Source: Moorena sp. SIOASIH
Lineage (GTDB): Bacteria > Cyanobacteriota > Cyanobacteriia > Cyanobacteriales > Coleofasciculaceae
Length of the DNA: 64,000 nucleotides
Direction of reading: 5' to 3'
Assembly: GCF_010671925.1 (NCBI RefSeq)
Contig: NZ_JAAHIH010000001.1
Coordinates: forward strand, 933,053-997,052
This document shows positions 16,599-64,000 of the stretch, piece after piece (position 1 is the stretch's first letter; each line of letters opens with the position of its first letter). The notes under the pieces are model-generated. The model had not been told where the DNA came from and ran no database searches. It saw nothing but the letters and a program-made list of their open reading frames with translations. A program made the translations under genes and the position numbers.

Positions 16599-18772
16599 GT
16601 GCGGCCTGTTCTTGCTAGGAGCCTAGGGCAACCCTAGGGGTATGAGTAAGGAATCCGCGAGGGTAACACCCTCAAAAGATTTAACTGTCTAACGGATGTG
16701 GGTGCAAACCCCACCCTTGAGGAGACAAGTGACTCCCTACCTTGACCACACCGAGCGGGCGGTATCTCCGCAGAGTGAAGCTGGTACCAGGGCGCAATCA
16801 GTTGACCATAAGCAGGTAACAACACTGGCGCTAATGGGGAGGTGACATGGGAAAACTGGTTCTAAAAAAGTGTCTGAAAATCAAGCCACAACCTGAAAAC
16901 CAATGTGGACTTCATCCTTTCATTCTCGCAGCATTTTTTCTGTGATAGCTGCAAACTCCGAGAAGAGGATAGGCAAAGTGAACCTCCCTAAATCACCATA
17001 ACAATCTGATAGATGGAACAGGTAAAAACGACAGAAATGAGGTCTAAGGAGTAGTCGAACCTTAGTAAGTTATGCCAAACCTAATCCCTCCTGTCGGGTA
17101 GGATGTAGCCGAAAAACTGGCTACGGGTATCCAGAATATAGAAATCCAATGGAGAGCATGGTTAGACACACAAAAAAAATTTGTAGTGAACTATGGAAGA
17201 GTCAAAAGTGGAAACAACTCCGCCGCCACCTATTCCGCCTACAGAGGAGACTATACAAAGCAGTTCAAGCTGGCGACCGTCAGAAAGCTAGGTCTCTACA
17301 AAAACTGATTCTGAAATCTCGTTCAGCACAACTTTTGGCAATACGTCAAGTTACACAGCTAAATCAAGGCAAGAGGACAGCCGGTATTGATGGGAAGTCT
17401 TCCCTTGATTGCCGGGAGAGATTCGAGCTTCTAGATAACCTGAACCACTATGCCTATAATTGGAAGCATAGCGAATTAAGGGAAATACCCATTCCTAAGA
17501 AAAATGGAAAAACTCGAATCCTTAAAGTTCCTACAATCGCCGACAGAGCATGGCAATGTTTAATAAAATATGCTCTAGAACCAGCTCATGAAGCGACGTT
17601 CAGTGCTGACAGCTATGGATTTAGACCTGGTAGGAGCGCACAAGATGCGCAAAAACGCCTATTCAACCACCTAAAATCCGACGCCAACGGCATAACAAAA
17701 AGAGTAATCGAATTAGACATCAAGAAATGCTTCGACAGGATTTCACACGACTCTATAATGGAAAGGCTCATAGCCCCACAATCCATTAAATCAGGAGTAT
17801 ACCGATGCCTGAAAGCAGGCATAAATCCGGAATTTCCAGAACAAGGGGCTCCACAGGGAGGCGTCGTAAGTCCACTATTAGCAAATGTAGCCTTGAACGG
17901 CATAGAAGATTGTCACCCTTCGATACGATATGCGGACGACATGGTGATAATCCTCAAACCAAAAGATAACGCCGGAAAAATCCTTCAAAAATTCAAGGAT
18001 TTCCTGGCCGAACGAAAAATGGAAATAAGTGAAGAAAAGACCAAGATAACCAAAACGACAGACGGATTTGACTTCCTGGGCTGGAACATTCGAGTCCAGA
18101 AAAACGGAAAGTTTAAAAGTATTCCCTCAGAGGAAAATCACAGAACAATCCGAAAGAAGATTAAAACCGTGGTCAACAGCTCGAATTATGGTGCAGAAGT
18201 TAAAGCCAAGAAATTAGCGCCGATTGTACGTGGATGGAGAAACTACCACAAAAACTGCGATATGAGCAGCAGCCGGGATAGTTTATGGTTCATGAATAAA
18301 ACCGCAAACCGTAAATTCCGAAAGGAGAAAAAGGTAAACCGGTATCAAGCTAATGAACTATGTGATAAAGCCTTCCCAGCAGTGGGGTACAAACAAAACA
18401 AACACGTCAATGTCAGAGGGACTAAGTCCCCCTTCGACGGGGACTTAGTATACTGGAGCAAACGCAACAGTAAGCTCTATGATAACGCAACATCAAAAAC
18501 TTTAACCAAGCAAAACCATTCCTGTGAACATTGCGGACACAAGTTCTTAAGCGACGAATATGTACACCTTCATCACGTCGATGGAAACCACGACAATTGG
18601 AAGCCAAAGAACTTAATGGCAGTTCACCAAAGCTGCCACCAAGAAATCCACTGGAGCAGGCCAAAAGGCAAGTCGAGAGACTGAAGGATATCTAGGAGCT
18701 GGATGAAGGGAAACTTTCACGTCCAGTTCTGAAGGAGAGGTGCTCCCGATAATATGGGACATCGACTCTAAC
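16599..18772 (+). mobile_element. Group II intron (bacterial, ORF in domain IV)
   Basis: 5' GTGCG at 16599. Domain V hairpin GAGCTGGATGAAGGGAAACTTTCACGTCCAGTTC at 18697-18730. 3' end ...CTAAC at 18772, set by comparison with the intron-less paralogous site at 56081-56106. Encodes an RT/maturase/HNH protein. Confidence 0.85.
17149..18684 (+). CDS. Group II intron-encoded reverse transcriptase / maturase with C-terminal HNH endonuclease
   Basis: RT blocks (RIPKKNGKTRILKVP, YADD active site in RYADDMVII) and an HNH/zinc-finger tail (CEHCGHK...HHVDGNHDN...CH). Confidence 0.9.
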   Translation: MESMVRHTKKICSELWKSQKWKQLRRHLFRLQRRLYKAVQAGDRQKARSLQKLILKSRSAQLLAIRQVTQLNQGKRTAGIDGKSSLDCRERFELLDNLNHYAYNWKHSELREIPIPKKNGKTRILKVPTIADRAWQCLIKYALEPAHEATFSADSYGFRPGRSAQDAQKRLFNHLKSDANGITKRVIELDIKKCFDRISHDSIMERLIAPQSIKSGVYRCLKAGINPEFPEQGAPQGGVVSPLLANVALNGIEDCHPSIRYADDMVIILKPKDNAGKILQKFKDFLAERKMEISEEKTKITKTTDGFDFLGWNIRVQKNGKFKSIPSEENHRTIRKKIKTVVNSSNYGAEVKAKKLAPIVRGWRNYHKNCDMSSSRDSLWFMNKTANRKFRKEKKVNRYQANELCDKAFPAVGYKQNKHVNVRGTKSPFDGDLVYWSKRNSKLYDNATSKTLTKQNHSCEHCGHKFLSDEYVHLHHVDGNHDNWKPKNLMAVHQSCHQEIHWSRPKGKSRD

Positions 18773-28088: not shown

Positions 28089-28465
28089 AGACCGTGTCTT
28101 GATGCAAAGCGCGAGTGGGGGAAACCACGGCAGTTGCTCATCGGGGGAACCCCCAAGACCGCACTGCCTCACGGTCATCTCAAGCACCATTAGCAAGTTC
28201 AGGTGACGTGACCTCCCCAAGACCGTAATGGTGCGTTTGACCCGTAATTAAATTCGCCACGGGTCGCACCTCTGCATAGCTTAATCAGTTGGTGTTTAGA
28301 AGAAAAGGAGCAAGCAAACTAATCTATAGAGATGGCTAGATAGAGTGGGTAACACCTTACCACCCAGCGATGCAGCGCGGTCTTGGGGAGGCAGCGCGGT
28401 CTTGGGGGTTCCCCCCATGAGCGACTGCCGTGGTTTCCCCCATGAGCGACTGCATCAAGAAGTGA
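28089..28465. repeat. Large imperfect palindrome (about 95-nt arms, about 140-nt spacer) built from sub-repeats (GGGGGAAACCACGGCAGTYGCTCATSGGGGG and CCCCAAGACCGC)
   Basis: The reverse complement of 28370-28465 aligns to 28089-28165 and 28205-28225 with more than 85% identity. Candidate MITE or structured regulatory RNA. Confidence 0.8.
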
Positions 28466-28811
28466 AAAAAAATCCCCAGCTCACCAAAGTGAACCGGGGG
28501 TGTCAATCAGGGTGCATCTACCATTTCACTTTTCCGAGATTGGTGATAGCAATCCGGAAAAATCTGGGTAAAGTGGCACCCAAATGCTGGAATTAGGAAA
28601 TTTTCTGATTCACAACAATTAACAGAGTATGCCTTGGAAACCTTAAATAAAAAACGGCATCAATACCATGAGCCAACAAGAATTTTCCCCTAAAGGAATA
28701 CTCCTCAATAAGCAAATAGTAAACAAATATTCAAGAATTTTTAAACCTTCAGCCAAAGCTCGTCACTATGAGCAAAATTGATCCCTTGAAATTGAGCAAA
28801 ATTGGGCAACA

Positions 28812-31340
28812 GTGGCACAGGAATTCCATATCTCCGTAACCCCCTTAGGAAAACATGATGATTATCTGGTGCGCATCGAACGAGTGGCACCGGGAGTCTC
28901 ATTGGCAGAAGAACAAGTCAGTTGGCCGGTAGAAGAATGGTTAACCCAGGCCAAGCAACTGATGAATGACCCCCTATTTAGTGTCCTGCAGGGTAGGGCA
29001 GCTGGGGTGGATGGCAGTTTTGCCATGCCATCTTGGGGAGAACCGTACTCTCAATCCTCTTTAAACTTAGTTGCCTTGGGTCAGGAGCTATACAATGCCC
29101 TATTTAAAGGAAGCTTGCGCGATAGCTGGATGATGGCGCAAGCGATCGCTCAAAATCAACGGTCGGTTTTGCGGCTGCGTCTGGGATTGAAAGGCACAGA
29201 ATTACCCCGCCTACCTTGGGAAGTGCTTCATGCTGGGGATCGCCCCCTAGCCACAGGAACTGATGTGGCTTTCTCCCGCTACCAAATGACTAAAGGCTTG
29301 ATTAGACCAGTTCCTAAGCCTTTCTCCCAACCGAATCAACCTCTGAAAATTTTGATGGTGATCGCGGGTCCAAGTGATCAAGAAAGTTTAGAACTCTTAC
29401 AAGAAGCATCTCACCTGAAAGAAGAACTCCGCCATCGTTCACCCAATGGCCCCCCAGCGATTCATCTGACAATTCTGGAACAGCCAGGACGGGAACAGTT
29501 AACCCAAGCCCTGGAACAAGGAAAATATCAAGTCTTCCACTATGCTGGTCACTCTAACCTAGGGGAATCAGGTGGTGATGTTTACCTGGTTAGTAAAAAA
29601 ACTGGTTTGACAGAGACCGTAAGGGGTGATGATCTAGCGGGATTGTTAGTTAATAATGGTGTCCAGCTGGCTGTATTCAACTCCTGTCGTGGTGCTCATA
29701 CAGCTGCTTCAGATAGCCAGGAAAACGGTAACGATCAAAATCTCGCCCAAGCACTGGTTAAGCGTGGTATTCCTGGTGTTTTAGCCATGGCAGAGCGCAT
29801 CCCCGATGAGGTAGCCCTGACCCTAACCCGACTATTATACCGTAACATCAACCAGGGTTATCCCATTGACCTAAGCCTCTCGCGAGCTAGACAAGGACTC
29901 ATTTCTGCTTATGGCTCGAACCAGCTTTATTGGGCATTACCTGTTCTCTATCTGCATCCGGAATTCGATGGTTTCTTGACCAATGATGACCAGAGTTATG
30001 ACCGAAATCAAATATTTAGCCTGCCCGATCCTCCTGGAATGTCTGTAGGGTTAGACCCAGAAGAGGGTTTTTTTACACCACCAGCAGATAATGATTCTAC
30101 CACATTCTCAGAATTTGAGGAAGAGTCAGCTCTTGTCTCTAGGGGAGAAGCTGAGTATGACCATGAAAGTCTCACTGGTGTACCACAGGGTTTAGAATCT
30201 CATCCACTAGAAGCAGACGATCCCGCTGCTTTCATTAAGGGATTGCTGGATCAGCTGAATACAGAGGCTCAGGGTGGGGAATCAACAATAGCAGCATCGA
30301 ATTTAGAGGGGTTATCGGAAAACCCTTACTCAGACACTGCTCAGAAGAACTTACCAGTCCATACCCCAAGTCAACTCCCTGCTGCTAGGAAAGCAACAGC
30401 TGCCACCCTGACTGCGGCTTTGTCTACGGAGGGCTCAACCCAATCAGCGCCAAAGCTTGAGGATACCACAGCAGCAGTTGAGGCTAAAAAGGTAACTAAT
30501 CCTAAACAGAAGGGTTCAAGGTTACCACGTTCACCATTGTGGATCGGACTAGGAGCAACGGGAACTCTTGCCTTAGTACTTTTGGGCGTTTGGTTTTTCC
30601 AGAACCCTCCTACTTCTGGGCCAGGGAGACAATTACCACCAGGTCTCTCCAAACCTGTTGATTACTCAAATGTGAATTTGAAAAAAGCTAAAACCAACAC
30701 GGTCACAGCGATCGCAATTCAAGCATTCAGTAAGGGTAATATTATTCGAGGAACCGAAGCTGTAACGGCATTGCTAGACCGGGGTGCATTACCCGAGGCT
30801 TCTGCTGCCCTTCAGGAAGTTCCCTCAGAACAATTGAATCAGTCAATGGTGAGTTTTTTAAGAGGGCGTCTGGCATGGCAGTCGATCCAGACCGGCTCGG
30901 ATGAATACAGTCTGGATGATGTCAGACGTTATTGGCAAAGAGCAGTCAAACAAGAACCTGACTCTTGGACTTACCGTAATGCCCTAGGGTTTGCCTATTA
31001 CGCTGAAGGCAAATACGAAGGAGCTAACCAAGCTTGGTATGATGCATTGTACAGGAGTAGCAACAAGAAATCTACAACAGTTGGATCTGGAAAATCCAGC
31101 AATTCCCAAAAATTGAATACCTATGCTGGCTTAGCGCTAGGGTCGTGGAAATCGGCTCAAGAACAAAACGGAGCTAAGCGGGCGAGTTTGTCCCAACAAT
31201 CCCTCAAGCTACGGCAACATGTGCTCACCAATGACCCGATTAACTTCCAACCTGATGCCTTGAGCAAGAACTGGCTTTGGTCACAGCAAGCGATTAAAGA
31301 TTGGCAATCGCTTTTAGAGGTTAGAACTTCTAACAATTGA
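28812..31340 (+). CDS. Membrane-anchored CHAT-domain (caspase-like) peptidase with a C-terminal TPR-like region
   Basis: CHAT core with His in FHYAGHSNLG and Cys in AVFNSCRGAH. One TM helix (LWIGLGATGTLALVLLGVWFF). C-terminal helical repeats. GTG start. Confidence 0.8.
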   Translation: MAQEFHISVTPLGKHDDYLVRIERVAPGVSLAEEQVSWPVEEWLTQAKQLMNDPLFSVLQGRAAGVDGSFAMPSWGEPYSQSSLNLVALGQELYNALFKGSLRDSWMMAQAIAQNQRSVLRLRLGLKGTELPRLPWEVLHAGDRPLATGTDVAFSRYQMTKGLIRPVPKPFSQPNQPLKILMVIAGPSDQESLELLQEASHLKEELRHRSPNGPPAIHLTILEQPGREQLTQALEQGKYQVFHYAGHSNLGESGGDVYLVSKKTGLTETVRGDDLAGLLVNNGVQLAVFNSCRGAHTAASDSQENGNDQNLAQALVKRGIPGVLAMAERIPDEVALTLTRLLYRNINQGYPIDLSLSRARQGLISAYGSNQLYWALPVLYLHPEFDGFLTNDDQSYDRNQIFSLPDPPGMSVGLDPEEGFFTPPADNDSTTFSEFEEESALVSRGEAEYDHESLTGVPQGLESHPLEADDPAAFIKGLLDQLNTEAQGGESTIAASNLEGLSENPYSDTAQKNLPVHTPSQLPAARKATAATLTAALSTEGSTQSAPKLEDTTAAVEAKKVTNPKQKGSRLPRSPLWIGLGATGTLALVLLGVWFFQNPPTSGPGRQLPPGLSKPVDYSNVNLKKAKTNTVTAIAIQAFSKGNIIRGTEAVTALLDRGALPEASAALQEVPSEQLNQSMVSFLRGRLAWQSIQTGSDEYSLDDVRRYWQRAVKQEPDSWTYRNALGFAYYAEGKYEGANQAWYDALYRSSNKKSTTVGSGKSSNSQKLNTYAGLALGSWKSAQEQNGAKRASLSQQSLKLRQHVLTNDPINFQPDALSKNWLWSQQAIKDWQSLLEVRTSNN

Positions 31341-52841: not shown

Positions 52842-53471
52842 ATGACCGAGTCTTCCTATCCCAATTACAGTGAACAGTTGCGACAACTTATGGCACAAGT
52901 GGGTATTCCTAGTTTTAAGCAACTCAGTCGCAGGGCTGATGTTTCCGAGTTGCAACTGAGGCGTTTGCGGAAAGGTCAGGTGTCCCAGATGCAGCTAAAA
53001 ACGCTGCTGAAACTTGCTCAAGCGTTGCAGGTGTCGGTGAATCAGTTACTGGTTATGTTTTTGCCAGATTCTGTTTCTACCTTACAGGAGGAAGACTCAA
53101 CATTAAAGCAGGAGTACCAGCGTCTGGAACAGCAGTTGGAACAGCAGCGCGAGACTTTAATGCAAGAGTTTCAGCAATCTAGTTTACAAGTGCTAGAATC
53201 CTGGCTAGTGCAATGGCCCACTGCTGCTTATGCGGCACAACAGAATGAGCAGTTACCAGCAGTGAGATTATTGCCCCTGGTAAAGCCAGTGGAACAGTTG
53301 CTAGAAAAATGGGGTGTGGAAGCGATCGCATCTGTGGGTGAAGAACTCCCTTACGATCCACAAAAACACCAACTCATGTCAGGCACTGCTCAACCAGGTG
53401 ATACGGTTAGGGTACGTTACACTGGTTACCGCATTGGTGATAAGTTGCTGCATCGTGCTAAAGTCACCTAG
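52842..53471 (+). CDS. XRE-type helix-turn-helix protein with a GrpE-like C-terminal domain
   Basis: N-terminal HTH (SFKQLSRRADVSELQLRRLRKG). C-terminal VRVRYTGYRIGDKLLHRAKV resembles the GrpE beta-domain. Confidence 0.45.
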   Translation: MTESSYPNYSEQLRQLMAQVGIPSFKQLSRRADVSELQLRRLRKGQVSQMQLKTLLKLAQALQVSVNQLLVMFLPDSVSTLQEEDSTLKQEYQRLEQQLEQQRETLMQEFQQSSLQVLESWLVQWPTAAYAAQQNEQLPAVRLLPLVKPVEQLLEKWGVEAIASVGEELPYDPQKHQLMSGTAQPGDTVRVRYTGYRIGDKLLHRAKVT

Positions 53472-53693
53472 TGTAAGCCTTGGCAATTCCCGGTAATCTC
53501 CGTAATTGCCCACTAGGTTGCAGACTCAGGATGATTTGCTTCCTACGTTGCTTTGGTTATGACACCTAGGAGTGAACTCCAGCCCCTAGCTCTGTCGCCA
53601 ATCATTAAGACAAAGGCAAAACGTGTGGTTGGCAAAACACAAGCCATAGCAACATTGTCGAGGAACACATTACCAATTTTGAGGCATTTAACA
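53472..53693 (+). ncRNA. Candidate omega-RNA scaffold associated with IscB-1
   Basis: Non-coding block immediately 5' of iscB. Shares conserved segments (ATGACACCTA..., ...CTGTCG..., ...ACATTGTCRAGG...) with the block upstream of IscB-2. Boundaries uncertain. Confidence 0.35.
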
Positions 53694-54953
53694 ATGCAAA
53701 ATTATGTCTTTGTTGTTGACACAAATAAACAACCATTGAATCCTATATCACCGAAGAAAGCACGGCGATTACTAGACAAAGGTAAGGCGGCGGTTTTCAG
53801 AATGTACCCGTTCACGATCATCTTGAAGACTGCGGTTGATAATCCCACCATCTCACCCTGCCAAATCAAGATTGATCCTGGCAGTAAGGTGACTGGATTT
53901 GCCTTAGTCCAAAACCACCAAGTTATTTGGGGAATGGAATTAGAACACAGAGGAGGGTTGATCAAGAAAAAACTAGAGTCTAGAAGAGCAGTGAGGCGTG
54001 GAAGACGCAATCGTAATACCCGCTACAGAAAACCCAGATTCCTTAACCGTAGGCGTCCAGGAGGTTGGCTTGCCCCTAGTTTAGAGCACCGGGTTTTGAC
54101 TATTGAGACTTGGGTAAAACGATTAACTAAGTTTTGCCCGGTTGATGAGATTTGGATCGAAAGAGTTAAGTTTAATACCCAAAAAATACAAAACCCTGAA
54201 ATTAATGGTGTTGAGTACCAACAAGGCGAATTAGCTGGGTATGAGGTCAGAGAGTACTTATTAGAGAAATGGGGAAGGGAATGCACTTACTGCGGCAAGA
54301 AATCCGTACCATTACAAATTGAGCACATTCGCCCAAAATCTAAAGGGGGGAGCGATAGGGTAAGCAACCTTTGTTTAGCTTGCGAGAAATGTAATCAACG
54401 AAAAGGAAACAAACCTATAGAGGAATTTATCAAAAAAAAGCCAAACTTATTGCAAAAAATTAAAACCAAAGCCAAACAACCACTATTGGATGCAGCGGCA
54501 GTAAATACGACTCGCAACAAGTTAGTAAAAGTGCTCCAGAGAATCAAGCCTGTAATTACTGGAACCGGAGCGCAGACCAAGTATAACCGGACTAAATTAG
54601 GTTTTCCTAAGGAACATTGGATTGATGCTGCCTGTGTCGGTAATATTGAGACATTGGTCTTGAAAACCTCTCAACCACTGTTAGTCACTTGCAAGGGGCA
54701 GGGGGGTAGACAAAAAGCAGTACTTAACAAGCACGGTTACCCGATTAGACACAATCCATTAAGACCGATCAAGGGTTGGTGTAGTGGAGACATAGCCAAA
54801 AACCTCCTGACCGGAAAGTTTGGGAGAGTTAACCCTAGGAGCAAAAGCAACTCTTTCAATTACACAGTCCCAAGAAAAAAGGCAATAAGCTTACACGTTA
54901 AGAACTTGACCAGGGTTCACAGAAAAGATGGGTACACTTACGGTTTTTGCTAA
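53694..54953 (+). CDS. iscB: IscB RNA-guided nuclease (OMEGA system; PLMP, RuvC-I, Arg-rich bridge, RuvC-II, HNH, RuvC-III)
   Basis: PLMP-like N-terminus (VFVVDTNKQPLNPISPKKARRLLDKGKAAVF). RuvC-I KIDPGSKVTGFAL. Bridge helix RRAVRRGRRNRNTRYRKPRF. RuvC-II IETW...E. HNH CTYCG...EHIRPKSKGG...CEKCNQRKGN. RuvC-III HWIDAAC. Confidence 0.85.
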   Translation: MQNYVFVVDTNKQPLNPISPKKARRLLDKGKAAVFRMYPFTIILKTAVDNPTISPCQIKIDPGSKVTGFALVQNHQVIWGMELEHRGGLIKKKLESRRAVRRGRRNRNTRYRKPRFLNRRRPGGWLAPSLEHRVLTIETWVKRLTKFCPVDEIWIERVKFNTQKIQNPEINGVEYQQGELAGYEVREYLLEKWGRECTYCGKKSVPLQIEHIRPKSKGGSDRVSNLCLACEKCNQRKGNKPIEEFIKKKPNLLQKIKTKAKQPLLDAAAVNTTRNKLVKVLQRIKPVITGTGAQTKYNRTKLGFPKEHWIDAACVGNIETLVLKTSQPLLVTCKGQGGRQKAVLNKHGYPIRHNPLRPIKGWCSGDIAKNLLTGKFGRVNPRSKSNSFNYTVPRKKAISLHVKNLTRVHRKDGYTYGFC

Positions 54954-55014
54954 TAAATACCAGGAACTGCCTGGAAATAGTCGTCCTATTACTTACAGTT
55001 AATATAGCAAAGGT

Positions 55015-55232
55015 AACAGGGAGTAGGGAGTAGGGAGTAGGGAGTAAAGAATAAAAATTATCACATAATTCAATTTAGTCATTATAAAATTGTTAATTGC
55101 TATTTTATATTTTCGATTAACAATTTTATATTTTATATTTGTCAGCCGTTTACCTTAAGCTGATGTGAATTTAAATTGGTTATTACCTGTTCCCTGTTCC
55201 CTGTTCCCTGTTCCCTTTGACTAATTTTAGAT
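55015..55232. repeat. STRR heptamers (GGGAGTA)n and (CCCTGTT)n flanking an AT-rich spacer
   Basis: Direct reading. Confidence 0.9.
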
Positions 55233-62502: not shown

Positions 62503-62779
62503 GCCTAGTAGTCCTTTGAGAGTGTTTGATAGTTATGATCAACAATTTACTTCGTTTATGAGCTAGCTCAAGGACAGCCCTAACTATTTCTGTCACAGTA
62601 AAAGTAACAACGAGTTCAGAGATATAGCAGAAGTCAGAAGTCAGAAGTCAGAAGTCAGAAGTCAGAAGTCAAACTCTTGCGCTTACTTAGGTTTGAGACT
62701 TTTGTCATGTCCGCGCCTGCCCTGGCGACTGCTATATTTCCAAATCAATGAACTTCCTACCTAAATTTGAGATGAGGAA

Positions 62780-63033
62780 AGGATAGTCAATAACTCACCG
62801 CTAAATCTTTAAGATTATAGCGGGAGCTTGTAAAAAGCTCATAGTTGACCAGACTAAGCTCACTTATGAGCTACGTTATTTCGCTCATGACACCTACAGA
62901 TACGTGCCAGTTTGTAGCAACTGTCGTACAGCTTTAAACAGGTGTAACGAGTTAAGCCAGTGAGTTGTACCTAACAAGGCGTTTATAACATTGTCAAGGC
63001 AAACTTTACCCACATTGTGGAGTGATCAAAGTA
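62780..63033 (+). ncRNA. Candidate omega-RNA scaffold associated with IscB-2
   Basis: Shares conserved blocks with 53472-53693 (CTCATGACACCTACAG..., ...CTGTCGTACAG..., ...CATTGTCAAGG...). Confidence 0.35.
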
Positions 63034-64000
63034 ATGCGAGTTTTCGTACTAGACCAAAATAAACAACCTCTAGACCCTTGTCATCCGGCAAGAGCTAGGG
63101 AACTACTCAAAAAAAGAAGGGCTAAAGTTTTCAAACGTTATCCATTCACAATTATTTTACAAGATAGAACTCTGGAAAATTCAGTAACTCATTCACACCG
63201 AATCAAAATAGACCCTGGCTCTAAAACAACGGGGCTTGCCATTGTTCAAGAGCCAACAGGTCGAGTAACTAGTGCTTTAGAAATCTTTCATAGAGGACAG
63301 CAGATTAAAGATGCTCTTGAGTCTCGTAGAGCTAATAGGCGTGGACGACGTAACCGCAAAACCCGTTACCGTAAGCCTCGTTTCTTGAATCGGACACGCA
63401 CCACAGGATGGCTTGCTCCATCATTAATGAGTCGTATTTTCAATATTGAAACTTGGGTTAGACGACTTACGAAGCTTTGTCCTGTCAGCGCAATATCTCA
63501 AGAGTTAGTCCGCTTTGATCTGCAAAAAATGCAGAATCCTGAAATTAGCGGAGTTGAATACCAACGCGGTGAGTTGTTTGGATTTGAGGTCAAGGAATAC
63601 TTGCTAGCTAAGTGGGGACGAAATTGTGTTTACTGTGGTGCGGAAAATGTGCCGCTAGAAGTAGAACATATTATCCCTAAGTCTAAGGGTGGCAGTAACA
63701 GAGTTAGTAATTTAACCCTAGCTTGTCGGTGTTGTAATCAAAAGAAAGGAAATGACCATATTGAGAAGTTTATCAAGAAAAAGCCAGCCATTCTCAAACG
63801 AGTATTATCCAAGGCAAAAACACCACTGAAGGATGCAGCAGCAGTGAATGCTACTCGCCTTGTATTGTTCAGAAGATTGCATTCAACTGGACTGCTTCTA
63901 GAAACTGGATCTGGTGGTTTGACTAAATTTAACCGAAAGACCAGAGGTATCGAAAAAAACCACTGGACGGATGCTGCTTGTATTGGGAAATCAACGCCGG
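63034..64000 (+). CDS. iscB: IscB RNA-guided nuclease, second paralogue (3' end beyond the window)
   Basis: MRVFVLDQNKQPLDPCHPARARELLKKRRAKVF (PLMP). IKIDPGSKTTGLAI (RuvC-I). RRANRRGRRNRKTRYRKPRF (bridge). HNH CVYCG...EHIIPKSKGG...CRCCNQKKGN. HWTDAAC (RuvC-III). About 60% identical to IscB-1. Confidence 0.85.
   Translation, partial: MRVFVLDQNKQPLDPCHPARARELLKKRRAKVFKRYPFTIILQDRTLENSVTHSHRIKIDPGSKTTGLAIVQEPTGRVTSALEIFHRGQQIKDALESRRANRRGRRNRKTRYRKPRFLNRTRTTGWLAPSLMSRIFNIETWVRRLTKLCPVSAISQELVRFDLQKMQNPEISGVEYQRGELFGFEVKEYLLAKWGRNCVYCGAENVPLEVEHIIPKSKGGSNRVSNLTLACRCCNQKKGNDHIEKFIKKKPAILKRVLSKAKTPLKDAAAVNATRLVLFRRLHSTGLLLETGSGGLTKFNRKTRGIEKNHWTDAACIGKSTP

Follow-up and report, generated by a model that had tools for sequence, protein, structure and literature searches.

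The window analyzed here is the whole stretch of 64,000 nucleotides from Moorena sp. SIOASIH. It carries two iscB genes in the same orientation, each preceded on the same strand by an RNA of the HEARO family. The features that make up the two loci are as follows, with the evidence for each in parentheses.

53449 to 53464, + strand: presumed native guide of omega RNA-1, TGCATCGTGCTAAAGT (collinear with the empty site of Moorena producens PAL up to 53464; unique in the window)
53465 to 54995, + strand: whole element 1, 1531 bp, comprising omega RNA, iscB, and a short end, with no tnpA (copy comparison, empty site)
53465 to 53693, + strand: omega RNA-1 scaffold of HEARO type, with a reduced or altered 5' domain (Rfam, four family copies)
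53694 to 54953, + strand: iscB-1, encoding 419 amino acids, NEO35572.1 (BLASTP, Pfam, protein record, alignment)
54954 to 54995, + strand: gene-distal end of element 1 (shared by four copies as far as the last base ahead of CAG; collinearity with PAL resumes at 54996)
54996 to 54998, + strand: CAG next to the end of element 1, a candidate for the transposon-adjacent motif (TAM) in the IscB-1 lineage (the sole flank bases common to all four copies; present in the empty site too)
62770 to 62785, + strand: presumed native guide of omega RNA-2, AGATGAGGAAAGGATA (collinear with the uninterrupted locus L066 up to 62785; unique in the window)
62786 to 63033, + strand: omega RNA-2 scaffold (HEARO), the RNA-proximal end of element 2 and the transposon RE in the frame of TnpA (Rfam, copy alignment, covariation)
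63034 to 64000, + strand: iscB-2, first 322 of 428 codons (ORF, Pfam, 100% identical protein on record, catalytic residues present)

The two iscB genes and their products

The initial annotation of this region, made from the DNA letters alone, had described a second, diverged IscB about 8 kb downstream of the first, and both parts of this description were borne out. The iscB-2 ORF opens with an ATG at 63034 and runs to the end of the window, so that 322 codons are visible; its product contains RRXRR and HNH domains and shares 61% identity with IscB-1, and 7.8 kb lie between the stop of IscB-1 (54953) and the start of element 2 (62786). In a large protein collection, we found a 100% identical product of 428 amino acids from Moorena sp. 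SIOASIH (NEO35581.1/WP_293091258.1). Given this identity and length, iscB-2 is complete and unfragmented in its genome. The last ~106 amino acids, situated outside the window, where the C-terminal domain for interaction with the target-adjacent motif would be expected, are present in this record and conserved among relatives. The truncation or frameshift beyond the window that the initial annotation had allowed for was thus not found, and a reading of iscB-2 as a pseudogene was rejected on the strength of the intact protein on record.

The two proteins have the same architecture. The RRXRR profile (PF14239) is covered in full by IscB-2 (E = 1.2e-72) and by IscB-1 (E = 3.7e-74), and HNH domains were detected in both. 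A phmmer search against PDB sequences matched IscB-2 to TbaIscB (9k30, E = 1.4e-44) and to OgeuIscB (7xht/7utn, E = 1.8e-25), and in the alignments to the solved IscBs the IDPG Asp of RuvC-I, the Glu of RuvC-II, the HNH His, and the H..D of RuvC-III all line up. D60, E157, H212, N235, H310, and D313 (IscB-2 numbering) are found in both window copies, and these six catalytic positions are near-invariant in an alignment of 226 sequences, with a single exception at D60, the RuvC-I Asp. Judged by sequence, both copies are IscB nucleases, with an HNH domain inserted into a split RuvC and a full catalytic set. IscB-2 in particular looks like a bona fide IscB and is apparently active, which agrees with the earlier proposal that it is probably functional: an intact protein of 428 amino acids with all six catalytic residues is apparently functional. 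NCBI already names both proteins "RNA-guided endonuclease IscB," and both are encoded on one 1.7-Mb contig of Moorena sp. SIOASIH. For iscB-1, an alternative, longer TTG start at 53553 overlaps the RNA; the start of the NCBI protein corresponds to 53694.

Two other features of the window were recorded in passing. A match to the small RNA NsiR1 (Rfam RF02399, 66 bits) lies on the minus strand at 28465 to 28523, in antisense orientation to a CHAT-domain/TPR (HetF-like) gene on the plus strand (28782 to 31337) and ~260 nt upstream of it. We take the position of NsiR1 next to a HetF-like gene to be the arrangement of Nostoc; Moorena is not known to form heterocysts. A group II intron occupies 17041 to 18772 on the plus strand and consists of a reverse transcriptase/maturase ORF (RVT_N, RVT_1, GIIM) followed by a domain V/VI match at 18694 to 18772.

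HEARO-type omega RNAs upstream of both genes

HEARO, whose boundary is that of the transposon RE, has been identified as the omega RNA of IscB (Meers et al. 2023, 10.1101/2023.03.14.532601). Both upstream RNAs cover the full HEARO model (Rfam RF02033). Copy 2 matches at 62786 to 63009 with 132.9 bits (E = 2.3e-27), well placed against the gathering score of 83, and copy 1 at 53482 to 53673 with 82.5 bits (E = 4e-15 for the whole window), which is 0.5 bit below that score. On the strand of the genes, the match stops 25 nt short of the start codon in copy 2 and 21 nt short of it in copy 1. A covariance-model scan of the window gave no further HEARO-like matches besides these two.

The 5' domain of omega RNA-1 departs from the Rfam model. 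By inspection, CACCTAG (53465) pairs with CTAGGTTG and encloses a GGCAATT/AATTGCC hairpin. Because this pairing coincides with the start of conservation among the copies at 53465, the scaffold of omega RNA-1 most likely begins there and not at the 53482 of the Rfam match.

From three short collinear blocks upstream of the two genes, the initial annotation had proposed a conserved omega-RNA core with a divergent guide and periphery, and had expected the similarity to exceed chance under shuffling. The blocks are present in both regions (ATGACACCTA at 53559 and 62887, CTGTCG at 53592 and 62921, and ACATTGTCRAGG at 53652 and 62988), and the conserved core is corroborated by the HEARO matches in both and by covariation. 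The 250-nt blocks are 54% identical when aligned, and as plain sequence their similarity is marginal, with a local score of 28 versus 17.6 +/- 2.2 for dinucleotide shuffles (z = 4.6) and a best score of 29 among 1000 such shuffles; a structure-aware comparison was decisive. In an alignment of 15 sequences, made up of both window copies and 13 relatives found in other cyanobacterial genomes, RNAalifold predicted 54 pairs, and 93.7% of the cells were paired, versus 30 to 40% when partners were slid by 1 to 3 columns. Compensatory changes occur in 35 of the 54 pairs, and 0 of 500 shuffles reached the observed covariation score. Minimum free energy folds of the single sequences were more stable than those of shuffles (z = -3.8 and -3.2); they did not cleanly reproduce the family structure.

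Between the end of the HEARO match and the start of iscB-2, at 63010 to 63033, we noted a hairpin, CCAC-ATT-GTGG, which overlaps the GGAG ribosome-binding site. It covaries among lineage-2 copies (CCG...CGG in others) and is missing from the IscB-1 lineage. Two lineage-2 omega RNAs, in the upstream regions of loci L006 and L008, carry insertions of 45 nt and 24 nt. A simple sigma-70 scan found no plus-strand promoter upstream of omega RNA-2, and the scan for sigma-70 promoters and terminators was uninformative.

Element ends and lineages

A scan of species-representative genomes yielded 58 related loci. Alignment of 16 IscB-2-lineage copies shows similarity from exactly 62786 on (GTCAAnnACTC...), and the upstream flanks are unrelated from copy to copy. 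The distal end of this lineage comprises ~95 to 115 nt that are shared after the stop codon and contain imperfect palindromes. It finishes with ...AG and is followed by ATGG in 10 of 13 copies, and beyond this point the flanks diverge. The conserved ATGG adjoining the distal ends is a candidate TAM of lineage 2. For the IscB-1 lineage, four independent copies were compared, namely that of the window, two from M. producens PAL, and one from M. producens 3L. What they share begins with CACCTAG (53465) and stops directly ahead of CAG (54996), and the distal end of element 1 contains a hairpin, CCAGG-AACTG-CCTGG, at 54960 to 54974. By its position next to this end, the CAG is a candidate for the role of transposon-adjacent motif. 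In both lineages, then, shared ends occur in unrelated genomic contexts, by which a non-autonomous element of the IS200/IS605 family is recognized. Pseudogenes were seen among the sister copies of lineage 2, at L016 (10001 to 10969) and L032 (10001 to 10462), with stops after 322 and 153 codons.

IscB-1 and IscB-2 share 61% identity over 316 amino acids of the visible part (BLASTP) and 54.5% over their full length. The best relatives of IscB-2 are proteins of 84 to 87% identity from other Moorena and those of IscB-1 proteins of 88 to 90% identity in other Moorena, and the SIOASIH genome itself encodes at least 4 further IscB-1-type paralogues (79 to 88%). The full-length relatives, 115 for one copy and 111 for the other, separate into two clean clusters, between which identity is at most 59.7%. 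On this comparison, IscB-1 and IscB-2 are members of two separate multi-copy IscB clades, each with members of 80 to 90% identity dispersed over other Moorena contexts, and the view that they do not represent a recent duplication is upheld by the full-length identity and the separate clusters. An old segmental duplication that produced IscB-2 from IscB-1, followed by divergence, would also account for the same orientation, the distance of 9.3 kb, and the common architecture. However, the full-length identity between the two is below the 86 to 90% that each copy shares with relatives in other genomes, and a common local origin is at odds with the separation of the clusters. Furthermore, the ends and motifs differ (GTCAA...AG followed by ATGG versus CACCTAG... 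followed by CAG), and each site is independently empty in another strain. Identity, clusters, ends, and empty sites together effectively refute a local duplication. Since genomes of ~8 to 10 Mb hold many IscB copies, it is no surprise to find two of them 8 kb apart.

Empty sites in sister genomes

The site of element 2 is uninterrupted in L066, a contig of Moorena GCA_010692495.1 that was reached via an exact match of the neighboring TatA protein. From 60942 onward, this contig and the window are 94% identical, and collinearity persists at 62734 to 62785. Directly after the equivalent of 62785 follows ATGGTTAAT, with which the cupin-globin gene begins, and the base next to 62785 is the first of its start codon (ATGGTTAATGCG...). 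Element 2 was thus inserted between the ribosome-binding region (...GAGGAAAGGATA) and the ATG of the cupin-globin gene. The ATGG that follows the insertion point in L066 is the same motif that follows the element in sister copies. The left junction is exact and no duplication was seen; as the right junction lies beyond the window, the insertion is shown to be scarless on one side.

For element 1, the orthologous locus of M. producens PAL-8-15-08-1 (L069) was reached via homologs of the HTH/GrpE-like gene. Here, window position 53464 is joined to 54996 and IscB is absent, so that both junctions of element 1 are seen, and they show no target-site duplication. The 5 nt TAGTC (L069 4623 to 4629, also in L067) are missing at the IscB-1 junctions 53464/54996, which makes this insertion not perfectly scarless relative to those strains. 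The absence of TAGTC may reflect lineage variation or an imprecise event. Element 1 also supplies the stop codon of the host HTH/GrpE-like gene (ORF 52842 to 53471), as the TAG at 53469 to 53471 is part of CACCTAG; the protein has 209 amino acids in the window versus 211 or 221 in other Moorena.

The empty sites bear on the statement in the initial annotation that both copies "have been kept." This statement found no support, as the copies belong to different multi-copy lineages and both sites are empty in related Moorena.

Guides

Similarity among copies starts exactly at the scaffold (62786 and 53465), and the presumed guides are therefore host DNA flanking each insertion. They are taken to be 16 nt long, the guide length of characterized IscBs. 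The guide segment of omega RNA-2 is the DNA just outside element 2, that is, the 5' UTR/ribosome-binding region of the cupin-globin gene, and that of omega RNA-1 is the 3' end of the HTH/GrpE-like gene; both segments are also present at the empty sites of other strains. This corresponds to the reported organization, in which the scaffold comes from the transposon RE and the guide is specified by DNA beyond the edge of the element (Meers et al. 2023, 10.1101/2023.03.14.532601). iscB genes were further reported to be biased toward co-orientation with the upstream gene, and omega RNA biogenesis to need read-in transcription from host DNA (Meers et al. 2023, 10.1101/2023.03.14.532601). In the window, element 1 is co-oriented with the gene that it clipped, and element 2 resides in the 5' UTR of a co-oriented gene.

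Absence of tnpA and the question of host function

None of the 20 TnpA-sized ORFs of the window contains a Y1 transposase domain, and no tnpA is annotated beside the related IscB copies retrieved. tnpA is found near only ~1.5% of iscB genes, and mobilization in trans is assumed for most of them (Meers et al. 2023, 10.1101/2023.03.14.532601). With the absence of tnpA being the rule for iscB, it says nothing about domestication. The initial annotation was right in noting that tnpA is lacking here, but the use of this lack as a hint of co-option falls away, given how few iscB genes have one.

Co-option itself, in which both IscB-omega RNA pairs would have been domesticated for defense or gene regulation, was the possibility that the initial annotation had raised. 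Pairs of this kind would use fixed guides against phage or host targets. Both ORFs and both RNAs are intact, the window holds no tnpA, and both elements are co-oriented with host transcription, all of which would suit such a function. However, a domesticated locus is expected at a conserved position and with a guide unrelated to its flank, and here the orthologous sites in related Moorena are empty, and the DNA in the guide position is that of the local flank and changes from copy to copy. The element ends are sharp, intact, and common to many copies elsewhere. The nuclease residues, which the known domesticated TnpB/IscB derivatives have lost, are retained, and the lack of tnpA is the norm for iscB. 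We therefore consider co-option very improbable.

A different proposal concerns mobility. Both loci might be genuine IscB elements that are stranded, that is, no longer mobile as the genome has no compatible TnpA, and persist neutrally or driven by their nuclease until they decay. The missing tnpA, in the window as well as in the annotation beside the related copies retrieved, is in line with this proposal, as are the premature stops of the sister copies L016 and L032 and the identity of 86 to 90% to the closest relatives, which gives no sign of very recent copying. Yet presence and absence of the elements between close strains (~94% DNA identity) point to movement or loss on a short timescale, and ORFs, catalytic residues, and RNA structure are all intact. 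In our estimate, stranding is unlikely, with a modest chance of being correct.

A possible recurrent landing site next to the HTH/GrpE-like gene

In two other strains, the spacer that holds IscB-1 in the window is occupied by an element encoding a TnpB of 405 amino acids (OrfB_IS605), found at L067 4640 to 6000 (GCA_010672205.1) and L068 1735 to 3090 (GCA_010692525.1). In both, this spacer lies between the HTH/GrpE-like gene and an ABC ATPase gene, and the TnpB element begins right after ...GTCCAG and replaces ~260 nt of it. The IscB element of the window and the TnpB elements of these two strains are thus located on either side of the same CAG, which suggests that IS200/IS605-type elements land repeatedly in the spacer 3' of the HTH/GrpE-like gene. 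Both insertion sites of the window have tandemly repeated heptamers (GGGAGTA, CCTGTTC, AGAAGTC) in their flanks, at 55015 to 55047, 55186 to 55216, and 62629 to 62670, and the equivalent spacer of L066 (1790 to 2110) contains much longer arrays of similar repeats. A more far-reaching speculation is that the IscB/TnpB spacer acts as a recurrent landing pad for guided-nuclease transposons and that element 2 is a strain-specific regulatory switch of the cupin-globin gene, borrowing the promoter of this gene for its guide RNA. We regard this combined proposal as doubtful and give it a small chance.

Two independently acquired IscB insertions

The anatomy of the elements, the family and covariation of their RNAs, the catalytic residues, the multi-copy lineages, and the empty sites are all directly observed. 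In the light of these observations, we are confident that the two loci are strain-specific IscB insertions, compact non-autonomous elements of the IS200/IS605 family that belong to different lineages and arrived independently, and not a pair maintained for a host function. The stretch from 62786 to 64000 would then be the left part of element 2, made up of the omega RNA (HEARO) scaffold and an intact iscB. By analogy with the sister copies, a terminal segment of ~95 to 115 nt is expected beyond the window. In a clean-insertion model, this segment would start after a stop codon at about 64320, finish with ...AG, and be followed by host sequence beginning with ATGGTTAATGCGATCGC... (cupin-globin gene).

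Transcription would read into element 1 from the co-oriented HTH/GrpE-like gene, and element 2, having hit the 5' UTR of the cupin-globin gene, would be transcribed from that gene's promoter. The resulting RNA would carry the flanking host sequence as its 5' guide, joined to the element-encoded scaffold. According to the established model, IscB cuts the donor joint left by TnpA excision, and recombination then restores the element (Meers et al. 2023, 10.1101/2023.03.14.532601). Applied to the two Moorena elements, the IscB-RNA complex would recognize the donor joint that forms when a TnpA acting in trans excises the element, and this joint would consist of the flank followed by the adjacent motif, ATGG in lineage 2 and CAG in lineage 1. 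IscB would cut the joint with its RuvC and HNH domains, and recombination with the sister chromosome would restore the element. For both elements, this model is the source of what we infer about transcription, the length of the guide, the identity of the TAM, the activity of the nuclease, and mobility at present.

The elements are of a known kind and family and are correctly named in the public annotation, and in themselves they matter little beyond annotation; nor do they open a new question on OMEGA domestication. Nevertheless, they provide a textbook natural example of the IscB lifestyle, with two intact elements from distinct lineages and, for each of them, a sister strain in which the site is empty. 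For these cyanobacterial IscBs of 419 and 428 amino acids, exact element boundaries, empty sites, predicted donor joints, and two candidate TAMs (ATGG, CAG) are modestly useful and could help the mining of small IscB nucleases or the study of transposon dynamics in Moorena.

Comparison with known systems

The closest characterized counterparts are OgeuIscB and the GstIscB element ISGst5 (OMEGA, IS200/IS605). With these, the Moorena proteins share the N-terminus of PLMP, RuvC, and bridge helix (RRXRR), the inserted HNH domain, and RuvC-III, with the complete set of catalytic residues. In these systems as in the Moorena loci, the omega RNA is encoded directly upstream on the strand of the gene, the scaffold begins where the element does, and the guide lies beyond it; the loci further resemble each other in the lack of tnpA within the element, in co-orientation with host transcription, and in a candidate short motif next to the gene-distal end. 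The differences are ones of detail. The Moorena IscBs, with 419 and 428 amino acids, are smaller than OgeuIscB (496 amino acids), to which they are ~25 to 30% identical by eye in the phmmer alignment. Compared with characterized IscBs, the putative adjacent motifs ATGG and CAG appear to be lineage-specific.

The first descriptions of HEARO RNAs drew in part on cyanobacteria, with many copies in a genome, and both Moorena RNAs are full-length matches to RF02033 upstream of an HNH/IscB ORF. There are also deviations from the Rfam model. In copy 1, the first helix is placed at 53482 by Rfam and at 53465 by conservation and pairing, with a different internal hairpin, and both RNAs run ~20 to 25 nt past the model toward the start codon.

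TnpB and its omega RNA (OrfB of IS605/IS607) belong to the same transposon superfamily and follow the same donor-joint homing logic. TnpB differs in being a single RuvC nuclease, in an RNA that overlaps the 3' end of the gene, and in a guide that lies downstream of the element. Cas9, the CRISPR-associated IscBs, and nuclease-dead regulators of the TldR type have a homologous nuclease core and an RNA-guided mode of action in common with the Moorena IscBs. In contrast to the domesticated and CRISPR-associated relatives, the Moorena loci lack a CRISPR array, have neither a fixed nor a reprogrammed guide, keep their catalytic residues and intact transposon ends, and are not in conserved synteny.
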